Below, piece after piece: positions 952-8,386 of a stretch of DNA of 22,657 nucleotides. Both the position numbers and the translations under genes were made by a program. The DNA lies in IMG/VR virus record IMGVR_UViG_3300024256_000983. One strand, written 5' to 3'. The DNA is from a virus. Under the pieces are notes generated by a model. That model worked only from the letters and a program-made list of their open reading frames with translations, was not told the DNA's origin and ran no database searches. The stretch's first letter is position 1. Each line of letters opens with the position of its first letter.

Positions 952-2712
952 ATTTACCAAAATATATTCGTAGAACCATTCAAGGGAAAGGTCCACATTT
1001 GGGACGACAAAGCCGGATATGTTTCAACACAATACAAAAAGTATGCTTATGTTAGAGACAACTATGGAACTTTTGCATCCTTATACGGTGATAAATTAAA
1101 GAAGATATACAGATGGGATAAGACTGCAGAAGGATTATTTGAAAGTGATGTAAATCCTGAAATGCGGACATTAATAGATATGTACGGTCAAAGTGAAGAA
1201 CCATCTACTGGACATAAAATATTCATATTTGACATTGAGTGTGAAGTAACAGAGGGCTTTCCAGACCCAATGATTGGTCCAAATAAAATCACATCTATTG
1301 CAATGTGGGATAACATCAGTAATGTTTATACGTGCTTAGCATTAGACGAACATAAGACACTAGACACAACAGGATTTGGAAAGAATGTCGTAGTTGAGAG
1401 TCACCAAACAGAGTATGAATTATTACAAAGATTTTACCAAAAGTATTTAGAGCTACGACCAACTATTATTACAGGTTGGAACGTAGATGGGTTTGATATT
1501 CCATATTTATACAACAGAACAATTAAAGTTCTCGGTCAAAGTGTTGCTGACAATCTATCACCAATATCAAAGGTGATGTATAGTAAATACACGAAACGAT
1601 ATAAAATAGCAGGTGTAAGTGTATTAGATTACTTACTACTCTATAAGGATTTTACATTTGGGTCAAGACCATCATATAGATTAGATGCCATTGGTCAATT
1701 TGAAGTTGGATCACCAAAAATAAGTTACGATGGAACACTAAACGATTTATTTGAAAACGACTTGAGAAAGTTTGTGGAATATAACATTCATGATGTTAGA
1801 ATAGTAAAACAGTTGGATGATAAATTAGATTTCATTGATATTGCCCGTGGTATTTGTCATATCGGTCATGTTCCATATGAGGACATATATTTCAGTAGTA
1901 GATATTTAGAAGGGGCAATCCTCACTCATTTGAAAAAATTAAACATCGTAGCACCAAACAAACCAGAAAAGGGTGAATATACAGATAATAAGTTCGTAGG
2001 AGCATACGTAAAAAGTCCACAACGTGGTAAACATGACTGGGTTATAGATTTGGATCTGACAAGTATGTACCCAAATTTAATAATGAGTTTGAATATCAGC
2101 CCAGAAACTAAGTTTGGAAGGGTAGTTGGTTGGAATGCTAAAGAATTTATATCAAAGAAAAAAAAGACACATTCTATCATATTAAATGGAAAGAAGAAGG
2201 GCCAACTAACAAATACAGAATTAGAGGACTTTTTTAATGATAATCAAATATCTATTTCAAGTGCTGGTATATTATATAAAACAGACAAAGCAGGTTTAAT
2301 ACCAACTATTTTATCCAAGTGGTTTGATACAAGATCAGAGTTTAGGAAATTAGCTAAGAAATTTGCAGACGACGGAAATGACGAAAAATATGAATACTTT
2401 AACAGACGACAATATATTCAGAAAATTTTACTTAATAGTATGTACGGTGTTCTTGGACTTCAGGGTTGGAGATTTTACGATTTAGAAAATGCAACCTCAG
2501 TTACAACGGCAGGGCAAGAATTAATTAAGTTTACTGCAAAAATAACAAATCATTTTTATAATAGTGAGATTGGTACTCCAGTTGAAGTTGAATTAGAAAA
2601 CGGTGAAGTTAGAAAGTTATATGAAAACAATAGAGTTGATGTAATACGAAATGGTAAAAAAATGGAAATAAAAGTAAAAGATTTACTGGAAACCGATGAT
2701 TTTTTGAGTTAG
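952..2712 (+). CDS. polB: Family B DNA polymerase, N-terminal fragment (3'-5' exonuclease, motifs A and B), probably starting at ATT 952 and ending in a 44-aa intein-like tail
   Basis: ExoI FDIECE, ExoII GWNVDGFDIPY, ExoIII YNIHDV, motif A DLDLTSMYPN, motif B KILLNSMYG. Frame is open 70 codons upstream of ATG 1162 (IYQNIF...HIWDD), with GAGG at 941-944 seven nt before ATT 952. Confidence 0.93.
   Translation: MYQNIFVEPFKGKVHIWDDKAGYVSTQYKKYAYVRDNYGTFASLYGDKLKKIYRWDKTAEGLFESDVNPEMRTLIDMYGQSEEPSTGHKIFIFDIECEVTEGFPDPMIGPNKITSIAMWDNISNVYTCLALDEHKTLDTTGFGKNVVVESHQTEYELLQRFYQKYLELRPTIITGWNVDGFDIPYLYNRTIKVLGQSVADNLSPISKVMYSKYTKRYKIAGVSVLDYLLLYKDFTFGSRPSYRLDAIGQFEVGSPKISYDGTLNDLFENDLRKFVEYNIHDVRIVKQLDDKLDFIDIARGICHIGHVPYEDIYFSSRYLEGAILTHLKKLNIVAPNKPEKGEYTDNKFVGAYVKSPQRGKHDWVIDLDLTSMYPNLIMSLNISPETKFGRVVGWNAKEFISKKKKTHSIILNGKKKGQLTNTELEDFFNDNQISISSAGILYKTDKAGLIPTILSKWFDTRSEFRKLAKKFADDGNDEKYEYFNRRQYIQKILLNSMYGVLGLQGWRFYDLENATSVTTAGQELIKFTAKITNHFYNSEIGTPVEVELENGEVRKLYENNRVDVIRNGKKMEIKVKDLLETDDFLS
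2578..2709 (+). other. Vestigial intein-N-like segment at the end of the PolB N-fragment
   Basis: PVEVELENGEVRKLYENNRVDVIRNGKKMEIKVKDLLETDDFLS* aligns by eye with the end of the RFC IntN in this window (EIELENGEVVVCTEDH...VKTNQL...ILSP*). It lacks Cys1/block A and the TxxH motif. Confidence 0.65.
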
Positions 2713-3173
2713 ATTATACAGATGATAATAGAAGAAAAATTTGGAATTTACTTTATAATACAACTAAAATTGAGTATTGGTTACATAATGGATATACAGA
2801 AATAGAGGCTGAAAGTAAACGTGTTAAATTTAATTCAAAATCAAAATTATCTATTTCTGTAATGAAGGAAATAGAACGTGAACTTAATATTGAGATCCAA
2901 CCAGAAGTTCGAATTGGGTGTTATGTGGCAGATGGTAAATATGAAAATTATATTATAGAATTTTTTGGTGATTATTGGCACATGAATCCGCAGTTATATA
3001 ATGAGACTCATACTATTAGAGGGGGTAAAGTTGCCAATGAAATTTGGGAGTATGATGAAATTAAAATAAATTTTTATGAAGATAATGGATATATCCCAAT
3101 AATAATTTGGGAAAATGATTGGAATTTGAGTAAAGAAACCGTTTTAGAACATATAAGGAAAATTATAATATGA
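2700..3173 (+). CDS. Free-standing putative homing endonuclease (Vsr/DUF559-like PD-(D/E)xK) inside polB; start codon uncertain
   Basis: YVADG...IIEFFGDYWH...IWENDW nuclease motifs. Frame is open from 2700, with YWLHNGYTEIEAE upstream of the tracked ATG 2862. Lies between the polB fragments. Confidence 0.75.
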   Translation, partial: FFELDYTDDNRRKIWNLLYNTTKIEYWLHNGYTEIEAESKRVKFNSKSKLSISVMKEIERELNIEIQPEVRIGCYVADGKYENYIIEFFGDYWHMNPQLYNETHTIRGGKVANEIWEYDEIKINFYEDNGYIPIIIWENDWNLSKETVLEHIRKIII

Positions 3174-3238
3174 AAATAAAACAAATAAGGAGGCAGCCAG
3201 ATCTCGATGTTGATAGAATTATCTACGTCGACACTTGA
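3170..3238 (+). CDS. polB: PolB middle mini-fragment (22 aa, MKIKQIRRQPDLDVDRIIYVDT*): IntC-like start plus first half of motif C
   Basis: ATGA overlap with the endonuclease stop. IIYVDT is the first half of YxDTDS; the rest (TDSIF) continues in another frame from 3235. Confidence 0.7.
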   Translation: MKIKQIRRQPDLDVDRIIYVDT

Positions 3239-4086
3239 CTGATTCTATATTTTTATCAGTTGTAGACCTCATTAACCACCGTTTCAAAGGTCAAAGCCTG
3301 AGTGATGTAATGATGACTCAACGAATAAATGAAATTGCAACTGAAGTTCAAGAATACTTAAATGGTTCATACGACTATTTCGCTAAGAAATTCTGTAACT
3401 TAGACACACACCGATTTGAAATCAAACAGGAAATTATAGCAAAGTCTGGTTTATTCATTACAAAGAAACGATATGGTATGAAACTCATTAGTGATAATGG
3501 AGTTCAAGTAAATAAGACAATGGTAAAGGGATTAGATACTGTACGTAGTAATTTCGCACCGGCATTTAGAAAACTATTAAACGATGTATTAGAGGACATT
3601 TTAGCAAGTGTTCCACGGGATAAGATAGACCATAGAATAACCAGATTTAAGAAGAACATGAGATTAAAAGATTTAGATGATATTTCTTCTCCAACCGGTG
3701 TAAAGGGAATTAAGAAATATATTAAAAAGGACAAAGAAAATACTTCAGTATTTACAGTATTGAAGAACGGTATTCCAGTCCATGTAAGGGCAGCAGTAAG
3801 TTATAATGATTTATTGCGATATTACAAACGAGATAAAAAATATGGATTTATAAGTAATGGGGATAAAATCCGGTGGGTATATTTAAAGAATAACTCATTA
3901 GGATTATCAGTAGTAGCATATAAAGGTTATGAAGATCCACCCGAGATTATGAAATTCATAGAAGATAATATGGATTATGATAAAATCTATGATAGAGCAC
4001 TCACTAAAAAACTCAATCTATTTTATGAATGTTTAGATTGGGGTAAACCAGTAGATGAAGCACAAAGTATAGAAAGATTTTTTTAA
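3235..4086 (+). CDS. polB: Family B DNA polymerase, C-terminal fragment (second half of motif C, palm and thumb)
   Basis: TDSIF, KQEIIAKSGLFITKKRY, KGLDTVRS, PVHVRAA and YWV-type GDKIRWVYLK motifs; ends QSIERFF. TTG 3235 overlaps TGA 3236-3238. Confidence 0.92.
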   Translation: MTDSIFLSVVDLINHRFKGQSLSDVMMTQRINEIATEVQEYLNGSYDYFAKKFCNLDTHRFEIKQEIIAKSGLFITKKRYGMKLISDNGVQVNKTMVKGLDTVRSNFAPAFRKLLNDVLEDILASVPRDKIDHRITRFKKNMRLKDLDDISSPTGVKGIKKYIKKDKENTSVFTVLKNGIPVHVRAAVSYNDLLRYYKRDKKYGFISNGDKIRWVYLKNNSLGLSVVAYKGYEDPPEIMKFIEDNMDYDKIYDRALTKKLNLFYECLDWGKPVDEAQSIERFF

Positions 4087-6631: not shown

Positions 6632-7157
6632 ATCCTGGCTAGAAAAGAAAATAATGTGCGGGCTATGCAACTTCGGCTGCTGTAATCATCCAACGTTTCA
6701 TGTTGAAATTTCGGAAGATGAACAAGAATTCTATCAAAAAAAATATGGATTAGACCTTGAATTGGAATGGAAGCAAGACGGTTGTTGTAAGTTATTGGAA
6801 GATGACAATACAGGTTGTAGTTTAGGAGATGACAGACCAGTATTTTGTAAGTTGTATCCATTAGTAGAAAACAAGTCTAATAGATTAGTGATGAATAATT
6901 GGGGATACTTACATTGTCCTAAATCACAACATTATGAATTGGATAAGATAGTGGAAGGAAAGTATCATTATAAACTAAAACCAAAAGTGAGAAAACACAA
7001 CAAACGAGAAGAATTAATACTCGATGACGAAATAGACAACGTGGTTCATCAGATTTGGTTACAATCTAAAGATTCCATCATTCAACGATATGGTCAAGAA
7101 TATTACAATAGAATAAAAAATGAAATGAAACAAACAATTAAACACGAGTTCTTTTAA
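6603..7157 (+). CDS. YkgJ-like cysteine-cluster (putative Zn or Fe-S binding) protein
   Basis: CGLCNFGCC...GCCKLL...GCSLGDDRPVFCKLYPL...C matches the CxxCxxCC / RPxxCxxYP pattern. Confidence 0.75.
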   Translation: MSKLSTTFSKSWLEKKIMCGLCNFGCCNHPTFHVEISEDEQEFYQKKYGLDLELEWKQDGCCKLLEDDNTGCSLGDDRPVFCKLYPLVENKSNRLVMNNWGYLHCPKSQHYELDKIVEGKYHYKLKPKVRKHNKREELILDDEIDNVVHQIWLQSKDSIIQRYGQEYYNRIKNEMKQTIKHEFF

Positions 7158-8386
7158 TGTATATAGATTACTTTGACAAATTTTACAATATGGAGCCCTA
7201 TCTCAAAATAGACGAGAAAGATTGGGAATACATAAAAGAAACATTTGAAAAACAAGATGTAAAAGAAAGTCTTGCCACGGTAGCAATGACATATCCACTT
7301 CCATATCCTGATTTAACCGAAAAGAGAGCATATAGAGATTTCCAAAAACTAAAAGGTATGAAGTGGAATGAAATAATGGTAGAGGGTGAGTGGTATGCAA
7401 GAGAGGGCACCAAGTATAGTTATAATCTAAACTACGATGGAAAGCAGTTAATGTTTAGACGACTAAATGTAGGAAATAGTTGTAGTAATTATTTCCAGAT
7501 TGAAAACAGATGGTCAGTAGATGGTTCAGTATCACCAGGTCCAAAACGAACTTGGGAAAGTAAAAAGTTTATGACTTCATTAATGGGAAGTGCATACTCA
7601 CTCAAAGTTCCAAAGATGGACAAGTCAACGTTACGAGTAATGTTAGCTCTACGAAAATATATCTGTTCCCAGTTTAAACCAAATGTGGCAAAATCAATCT
7701 ACGATATGTTTAAGGCAGAAACCATCCTTGATTTCAGTGCTGGTTGGGGTGATAGATTGGCAGGATTTTACGCCAGTGACTATGGAAAACATTATGTAGG
7801 TTTAGACCCACGAAAAGAGAACCATCCTATATACAAAGAACAGGCAGAGTTCTACGAAAAACATTTAGGATATTTTGAACACGAGAGAAAGTCAGAATTC
7901 CATTGCTCACCAGCAGAAGATTTTGACTTCACTCAGTTCAATGACTATTTCGATGTGGTATTCACTTCACCACCGTATTTTTCAGTAGAGAGATACAGTT
8001 ACGATGACACTCAAAGTTGGGTCAGATACAAAGACATAGAAGATTGGAATAGAGATTTCCTACAGGCCACCCTCGGTAAAATTTGGCCAAGTATTAAACC
8101 AGGAGGTCATCTATTAGTGAATATATCAGATGTGTATTCAGGTACAAAGGGGGTCACAAAAAAGGGTTGGTTAGAAATCTGCAACCCGATGAACGATTAT
8201 TTATCTGAAATAGAAGGTAGTGAATATATGGGGTGTATAGGTTACCAGTTAGCAAAAAGACCAAATTCTGGTGGAGCTGGAACGGCAAAAGGCTACGAAG
8301 ATAGTAAATGGACAGAAAAATCCCTTGAAAACAAAGATGATAAAAGTTTTGGAGAGCCAACGTGGGTATTTCGTAAATTAATTTAA
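7157..8386 (+). CDS. SAM-dependent amino (N4-mC/N6-mA type) DNA methyltransferase-like protein
   Basis: Motif I ILDFSAGWGDR (aa ~192) and motif IV FTSPPYF (aa ~271), with a ~190-aa N-terminal region. TAATG coupling to the upstream gene. Confidence 0.85.
   Translation: MYIDYFDKFYNMEPYLKIDEKDWEYIKETFEKQDVKESLATVAMTYPLPYPDLTEKRAYRDFQKLKGMKWNEIMVEGEWYAREGTKYSYNLNYDGKQLMFRRLNVGNSCSNYFQIENRWSVDGSVSPGPKRTWESKKFMTSLMGSAYSLKVPKMDKSTLRVMLALRKYICSQFKPNVAKSIYDMFKAETILDFSAGWGDRLAGFYASDYGKHYVGLDPRKENHPIYKEQAEFYEKHLGYFEHERKSEFHCSPAEDFDFTQFNDYFDVVFTSPPYFSVERYSYDDTQSWVRYKDIEDWNRDFLQATLGKIWPSIKPGGHLLVNISDVYSGTKGVTKKGWLEICNPMNDYLSEIEGSEYMGCIGYQLAKRPNSGGAGTAKGYEDSKWTEKSLENKDDKSFGEPTWVFRKLI

Follow-up and report, generated by a model that had tools for sequence, protein, structure and literature searches.

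A conserved five-nucleotide break in the catalytic motif of a split phage DNA polymerase and its probable resolution by a short ribosomal hop

How can a DNA polymerase be made from a gene whose catalytic motif is interrupted by a stop codon and a change of reading frame? This question is raised by the IMG/VR virus record IMGVR_UViG_3300024256_000983, a stretch of 22,657 nucleotides (referred to as the window) from an uncultured marine T4-like phage. It carries a family B DNA polymerase (PolB) of the T4 gp43 type, which is split into two genes, 43A and 43B, by what we read as a homing-endonuclease cassette. The interruption lies 21 codons into 43B, where it separates the D codon from the T codon in the catalytic YxDTDS sequence (motif C). 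We propose that it is overcome by a programmed +5 hop of peptidyl-tRNA-Thr which restores exact YVDTDS, and we assign a probability of about three in four to this reading.

Positions 3227-3246, read directly from the window, are TAC GTC GAC ACT TGA CT GAT TCT. Deletion of five bases results in the canonical Y-V-D-T-D-S, whereas in the sequence as it stands the 22-codon open reading frame (ORF) at the start of 43B terminates with Y-V-D-T-stop and the remaining PolB lies two bases out of frame. A TTG codon (3235-3237) overlaps the TGA stop and opens a frame of 283 codons (3235-4086), which starts with TTG ACT GAT TCT and encodes the remaining palm and thumb of PolB (Pfam PF00136). The five extra nucleotides within YxDTDS, the short ORF ending in YVDT-stop, the TTG overlapping its stop, and the ATGA overlaps at positions 3170 and 12929 had all been described in the original prediction, made from the letters of the window, and all of them are present. 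Its statement that the site corresponds to the pol-c intein site also holds, as the position matches YGD/TDS exactly (PMC549080). Motif C is complete only after a +5 shift, and cognate re-pairing by the tRNA in the P site is possible only with this shift. From the landing ACT onward, the alignment with unsplit relatives gives exact Y-V-D-T-D-S with zero indels. The predicted product of the hop is a 43B protein of 303 amino acids (aa). Genes encoding tRNAs were not found within the window.

Comparison with related genomes had been named in the original prediction as a way to check the five nucleotides, and the closest relatives (designated, like all relatives here, by L numbers) do not have a contiguous motif. 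The same 5-nt break at the same codon was observed in L089, a GenBank whole-genome shotgun contig with 95% aa identity in the C-fragment, and in L003/L088 from two IMG/VR samples with 90% identity; the substitutions around the break are independent in L089 and L003/L088. Pattern scans of IMG/VR revealed eight further diverged lineages with the break, resulting in a total of 11 diverged lineages. They stem from at least 17 independent assemblies, and their aa identity in 43B is 28-95%. A common design is shared by 11 out of 11 lineages, in which a Thr codon ACN is followed by a stop (TGA or TAA), by a second ACN whose first base is the last A of this stop, and then by GAY TCN. Both Thr codons keep their AC and the stop keeps T-R-A, and variation is found at the third positions. 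The combinations observed are ACT-TGA-ACT, ACC-TGA-ACT, ACC-TGA-ACA, ACG-TAA-ACT, ACC-TAA-ACT, ACT-TAA-ACT, ACG-TAA-ACC, and ACG-TGA-ACA.

An unsplit gene with a contiguous YxDTDS was observed in 154 out of 160 other relatives of the PolB of the window, in 75 out of 80 relatives of L170, and in 48 out of 58 relatives of L169, the latter total including matches cut by the contig end. In a tree of the C-fragments, gapped lineages occur at scattered places between unbroken ones. No clear identity gradient toward the cassette, which would be a sign of co-conversion, was observed. Megablast of the region against GenBank phages returned zero matches, and the nearest virus record, G001, does not span the polymerase. 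The closest cultured phages are only 40-48% identical in 43B and unbroken, with the gene of Pelagibacter phage HTVC008M being unsplit, and thus there is no tractable isolate.

For the frame downstream of the break, a ratio of nonsynonymous to synonymous substitution rates (dN/dS) of 0.04-0.07 was obtained from the window, L089, and L003, and in the other two frames the proportion of nonsynonymous changes (pN) exceeds that of synonymous changes (pS). The downstream frame is under strong purifying selection. In a relative of 174,750 bp, which is approximately 90% complete, the two PolB pieces are the sole polymerase matches above the threshold. Due to the purifying selection, the lack of any other polymerase above the threshold in this relative, and the fact that a start codon is mostly absent at the overlap, the C-fragment must be made and must be reached from the leader ORF. 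Taken from these comparisons, the break is to be regarded as real and selected, beyond chance or error.

Every gapped lineage contains an RNA hairpin immediately 5' of the take-off codon, with a 3' arm formed by the I-Y-x-D codons and a 5' arm formed by the codons of the preceding leader residues. The folding energy of the window is -11.1 kcal/mol (z = -2.2), and the other end of the range lies at -26 kcal/mol. In the same stretch of 92 distinct unbroken relatives there is no hairpin, with a mean of -2.5 and a best value of -6.1 kcal/mol. In a gap-free alignment of eight lineages, 95.8% of the cells of the homologous 12-bp helix are paired, compared to 17-43% in slid controls. Six out of 12 pairs are altered on both sides, and none of 500 shuffles was as good. 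The presence of G-U pairs in the helix implies that the structure acts in the sense-strand RNA. The same hairpin arrangement occurs in L191, whose leader and tail are unrelated and whose C-fragment is 28% identical. Downstream of the site, RNAalifold (-45 to +75) detected no conserved structure.

A natural control is given by L333, the contig of L191, and by L330-332, which are 99.6% identical over 6.86 kb. Ten of the 26 differences between them are situated at the break site, around positions 2990-3010 of L333, and comprise the 5 nt as well as synonymous changes at five third positions in a row, all of which disrupt pairs in the 3' arm (-23.8 kcal/mol for the gapped versus -2.7 kcal/mol for the gapless allele). 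Due to the unchanged 5' arm in the gapless L330-332 allele, the hairpin was ancestral in this lineage. As L333 and L330-332 differ in the gap and the hairpin together, both behave as one unit, and once the gap is missing the hairpin is apparently not maintained. The gapless near-twin of L333 encodes plain Y-S-D-T-D-S, and an identical protein is expected from the gapped allele. The clustering of the differences is explained either by a very short conversion tract or by fast selection against a gapless hairpin.

In the proposed hop, the ribosome would reach the first ACU with its P site occupied by peptidyl-tRNA-Thr and its A site by UGA, where UGA-C, a poor termination context, would be decoded slowly. 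At this point the 12 nt of the 3' arm of the hairpin would be located within the mRNA exit channel, with the loop and the 5' arm outside. Refolding of the 3' arm with its partner outside the ribosome would pull the mRNA forward, and a slide of five bases would allow the first pairs to form. The tRNA would leave its codon and re-pair with the second ACU, five bases downstream, and decoding would restart at GAU, giving the 303-aa 43B with intact YVDTDS that would assemble with 43A. A nascent-peptide contribution could be added by the basic N-terminal extension of 43B (MKIK-x-I-[KR][KR]), which in 10 lineages is approximately 14-21 residues away from the P site; the leader of L191 differs. With regard to the gap itself, the five bases probably destroy the recognition or cleavage site of the cassette endonuclease, comparable to the 50-nt gap in T4 gene 60, which protects against self-cleavage by MobA (10.1101/2022.08.31.505936). 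Since the gap sits exactly at the pol-c intein site, endonucleases recognising the DNA of the invariant motif would fit. The coordinates of all elements are given in Table 1.

Table 1. Features of the split polymerase locus, in coordinates of the window
Feature	Position	Strand	Basis or remark
43A, N-terminal gene of PolB: exonuclease, motif A, fingers with motif B	952..2712	+	Pfam PF03104, PF00136; PHROG DNA polymerase families
43-aa C-terminal extension (CTE) of 43A, non-polymerase	2581..2709	+	unsplit relatives continue directly into motif C there
Homing-endonuclease remnant, truncated, 103 aa, nuclease core only	2862..3173	+	C-terminal part of phrog_22677; stop overlaps ATG 3170
43B start: 10-aa N-terminal extension (MKIK-x-I-R-R type), then polymerase residues to Y-V-D-T-stop	3170..3238	+	last 12 residues align with unsplit relatives
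RNA hairpin with 7 bp, a U.U mismatch, another 4 bp, and a GAAU loop	3204..3231	+	ends one base before take-off codon; 3' arm is formed by the I-Y-V-D codons
Putative take-off codon ACT (Thr)	3233..3235	+	ACN in 11/11 lineages, third base variable
TGA stop, in the A site at take-off, C always next	3236..3238	+	TGA or TAA across all lineages
Putative landing codon ACT (Thr), shares the last base of the stop	3238..3240	+	ACN in 11 lineages; decoding would resume at GAT 3241
43B remainder: catalytic Asp, palm, thumb, clamp-binding-like C-terminal tail	3241..4086	+	Pfam PF00136; dN/dS

The hop is favoured because of the conserved Thr-stop-Thr design and the adjacent hairpin. Several observations weigh against it. 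Take-off and landing codon have different third bases in seven out of 11 lineages, and in two of these the codons (ACC to ACA and ACG to ACC) are not both readable by one tRNA of the E. coli type. Wobble-compatible pairs are found in nine out of 11 lineages versus approximately 75% expected by chance, and the matching of third bases is no better than chance. In L324/325, one of two gapped lineages beyond these 11, the hairpin, the ACC codon, and the TGA are kept, but the landing triplet is a non-cognate ATT (TGA TT GAT); similarly, the other, L346, keeps the hairpin, the Thr codon, and the TGA, but contains a 6-nt in-frame insert (TGA TCT) and offers no cognate landing. Gene 60 depends on a take-off stem-loop, for which the 5-nt gap is too short, the window has the weakest hairpin of all, and the hop yield would have to be fair for an essential enzyme. 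Finally, a TTG or GTG overlaps the stop in the window, L089, L184, and L191, and some restart is conceivable there.

Other types of recoding would lead to the same frame, either by a +2 shift with a new Thr-tRNA on the second ACU (D-T-T-D-S) or by a -1 shift (D-T-L-T-D-S). Their net frame change (+2, equivalent to -1) is identical to that of the +5 hop, and as seen in L324/325 and L346 re-pairing on ACN is not always possible. However, a slippery heptamer is absent, tRNA-Thr is unable to re-pair at -1 or +2, and -1 shifts are attenuated where a hairpin adjoins the E site (PMC6321510). Both products would furthermore carry one or two extra residues in the invariant D-T-D turn, an insertion without counterpart among the unbroken relatives (more than 270), and plain D-T-D-S is encoded by the gapless allele of L330. 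We consider this type of recoding unlikely.

The original prediction had raised the possibility of a three-piece polymerase, in which a 22-aa peptide is freed at the TGA, translation restarts at the TTG, and the pieces assemble non-covalently with 43A around the DTD turn. A usable start codon overlapping the stop is indeed present in four out of 11 lineages (TTG in the window and L089, GTG in L184 and L191), and an ATG just before T-D-S in L273/L274 means that a true restart at the turn may exist in one lineage. In the other lineages, however, the overlapping codon is CTG (L003, L169), GTA (L170, L179), CTA (L171), or TTA (L172, L175), i.e., a very poor start in two lineages and none in five. 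The TTG of the window is not preceded by a Shine-Dalgarno (SD) sequence, and an in-frame stop is located six codons upstream. With a restart, the duplicated Thr codon and the conserved hairpin would have no role, and the near-identical gapless allele (L330) encodes a contiguous motif. A micro-peptide with a restart at the TTG is thus not borne out, and we regard the three-piece polymerase as quite improbable.

A stop and a frameshift in a catalytic motif normally signal a pseudogene, and the window covers 22.7 kb of a genome in which a second polymerase may be encoded elsewhere, but a dead gene (the lethal lesion of the original prediction) or an assembly or sequencing error, with replication by another enzyme, is extremely improbable in view of the identical design in the independent assemblies, the low dN/dS downstream of the break, the co-varying hairpin next to it, and the lack of another polymerase above the threshold in the nearly complete relative.

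The assignment of the two genes to PolB is based on matches of PF03104 and PF00136 to 43A and of PF00136 to 43B, and motifs A and B are visible in the translation of 43A. In this reading, the cassette supplies the 43-aa tail of 43A, an endonuclease gene, the start of 43B with its basic extension, and the 5-nt interruption. The CTE shows the pattern L-E-N-G ... N-G-x-x-K ... D-D-x-L, which is conserved in all lineages bearing an MKIK-type cassette, and obtained zero matches in a Pfam search. The scar of a lost element, another option of the original prediction, holds with respect to the tie to a mobile element, as the endonuclease cassette is situated directly upstream. Thus, a real break and a link to a mobile element were anticipated correctly, and a ribosomal hop was not among the options considered.

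The 103-aa remnant of the window aligns with the endonucleases of L003, L170, L171, L175, and L179. In L003, the same slot contains a full-length endonuclease of 277 aa, which matches the N-terminal part of phrog_22677. The enzymes in the slot of these five lineages are DUF559/Vsr-like nucleases with zinc-finger or NUMOD3 modules, an assignment given by a weak Pfam match and by phrog_22677. PDB sequence searches with the endonuclease and its profile yielded nothing useful. In case of L184, the slot between the polymerase halves (6797-7699) holds a GIY-YIG/NUMOD3 enzyme, and compared with the DUF559/Vsr-like nucleases elsewhere this indicates that endonucleases were swapped within one cassette site. 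The slot of L089 is empty except for a 3' scar.

We also considered a split intein formed by the two extensions as a candidate and rejected it. The CTE begins with P-V-E-V and not with Cys or Ser, the extensions amount to approximately 55 aa in total, the N-terminal extension does not end in His-Asn, no His-Asn precedes the Thr, and no Hint match was obtained in Pfam.

Two further observations concern the starts of the polymerase genes. The first ATG of 43A is located at position 1162, the conserved coding sequence begins at ATT 952, and the frame is open from position 925. Upstream of 1162 neither ATG nor GTG nor TTG occurs in 43A, although approximately 70 codons of this upstream part are conserved with L089. 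In L089, 43A starts with GTG, and the equivalent codon of the window is ATT 952-954, which is situated 6-7 nt past AAGAGG. Due to the conserved upstream codons, the equivalent GTG, and the preceding AAGAGG, initiation of 43A at AUU 952-954 is probable. Within the leader ORF of 43B, a perfect SD-like AAGGAGG (3187-3193) covers the codons for I-R-R, approximately 45 nt upstream of where the landing codon lies. This run, the only SD-like one there, is kept at the DNA level only in the clade of the window and in L172, and the other lineages have AAA AAA.

The split is always accompanied by the gap only in the clades of the window, L170, and L169. Most relatives in the L191 clade are split but contiguous and lack the hairpin, and thus split and gap can separate. 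These relatives (L334-L409) constitute a large marine clade in which PolB is permanently split ahead of motif C, at a distance of approximately 25 codons. The halves are separated by one to three small genes, among them a conserved ORF of approximately 90 aa, and neither a gap nor a hairpin is present.

A different arrangement was observed in L273 (2881-3010) and also in L274, where a 42-nt in-frame insert occupies the motif-C site and the upstream hairpin is kept. The order is Y-I-D, TTC TAA, a CCCCG/CGGGG stem, an SD-like run, ATG TAC, and then ACA GAT TCA. This may represent a true restart that splits the enzyme at the D-T-D turn, as suggested in the original prediction for the window, or a longer bypass. 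The 43A equivalent of L273 (27-2867, 946 aa) contains, besides the motif-C cassette, a LAGLIDADG-type insert in the exonuclease region, which is probably an intein.

To our knowledge, T4 gene 60, together with its homologues among topoisomerase genes, is the one phage system for which programmed bypassing is known. The gene 60/mobA element combines a split gene, added tails, the bypass, and an endonuclease, which has often been lost or exchanged (10.1101/2022.08.31.505936). The PolB locus resembles the gene 60/MobA arrangement (Manning and Atkins) in that a cassette splits an essential replication gene and provides a C-terminal tail upstream and an N-terminal extension downstream. In both cases a non-coding insert lies a few dozen codons into the downstream gene, with a take-off codon, a stop, and a matching landing codon. 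Also in both, the endonuclease is often degraded, lost, or replaced (here Vsr-like or GIY-YIG) while the gap stays, and some lineages lose the gap and keep the split. The differences concern the gene (PolB instead of topoisomerase II), the length of the gap (5 instead of 50 nt), and the codon (Thr ACN instead of Gly GGA). Neither a stem-loop inside the gap nor an SD-like element a few bases 5' of the landing codon is present. In PolB, the conserved hairpin lies entirely on the 5' side of the take-off codon. The 5' stem-loop of gene 60, in contrast, is unconserved among its homologues. In place of the Mob-type HNH endonuclease, DUF559/Vsr-like enzymes or GIY-YIG enzymes with NUMOD3 are found, and they reside in PolB. 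For gene 60, mRNA pairing at the exit was proposed as the driver of the bypass (bioRxiv 10.1101/2024.12.09.627546), and the 12-bp hairpin ending at the E-site codon would provide a corresponding feature. Unlike the bypass of gene 60, the hop in PolB is a prediction from the sequence.

Matched codons on both sides of a stop give rise to "stop-hops" in E. coli, according to the work of Weiss, O'Connor, Gallant, and others as summarised in PMC5009743. In these events and in hungry-codon bypassing, as in the proposed hop, the peptidyl-tRNA leaves its codon in front of a slow A-site codon and re-pairs a few bases further on. As presented in that summary, stop-hops are artificial or adventitious, non-programmed, and of low efficiency, whereas PolB offers a natural conserved site in an essential gene together with a putative stimulatory structure. 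Moreover, in PolB a single residue would be specified by 8 nt, with a change of frame. On 70S ribosomes, forward shifts are stimulated and -1 shifts attenuated by a hairpin that refolds beside the E site (PMC6321510, PMC3639245). A further parallel is the +1 frameshift of prfB (release factor 2) at CUU UGA C, where UGA-C occupies the A site and forward movement is favoured by a duplex directly adjoining the E site (PMC6321510, PMC3639245). The PolB hop would differ from it by a +5 movement onto a non-overlapping codon, by an intramolecular hairpin instead of the SD:anti-SD duplex, and by the lack of a known autoregulatory logic.

With regard to the split gene, a T4-type PolB encoded by two genes with an endonuclease gene in between is also found in the Aeromonas phages 25 and Aeh1 (Petrov, Karam; via PMC2677866), and in the marine "fractured genes" phage genes are broken by free-standing Vsr-like endonucleases (Dassa 2009, PMC2677866). 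In the account given there, no recoding site is described for either of them, and the fractured genes use split inteins, whereas the PolB cassette has none. The position YxD/TDS is a hot spot shared with the split intein of Nanoarchaeum and with the pol-c inteins found in the PolB of archaea and of Mimivirus, and represents the most conserved stretch of family B polymerases (Ogata 2005, PMC549080). Unlike these inteins, which are protein-splicing domains, the 5 nt are probably resolved in translation.

Full-text literature searches gave no report of a bypass in a phage polymerase; they returned gene 60 and the topoisomerase homologues, the byps of yeast mitochondria, and synthetic hops. Short natural counterparts have "long been presumed" and yet not been found (PMC5009743). 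On balance, we think it probable that the PolB break represents a second natural family of programmed bypassing, the shortest known, in uncultured marine T4-like phages. It would consist of a 5-nt hop with minimal, portable signals, pulled by a refolding hairpin and possibly functioning without cognate re-pairing in L324/325 and L346, with the five bases conferring self-immunity against homing endonucleases of the pol-c site. If true, this would be a minimal version of bypassing in a different essential gene, and its simple stimulatory element could reveal how refolding of the mRNA on the exit side drives forward sliding. It would also mean that homing-endonuclease cassettes reached the combination of a split gene and a bypassed gap more than once, in this case at the pol-c intein hot spot. 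Gene callers will label such polymerases as truncated or as pseudogenes, which affects PolB-based surveys of marine T4-like phages.

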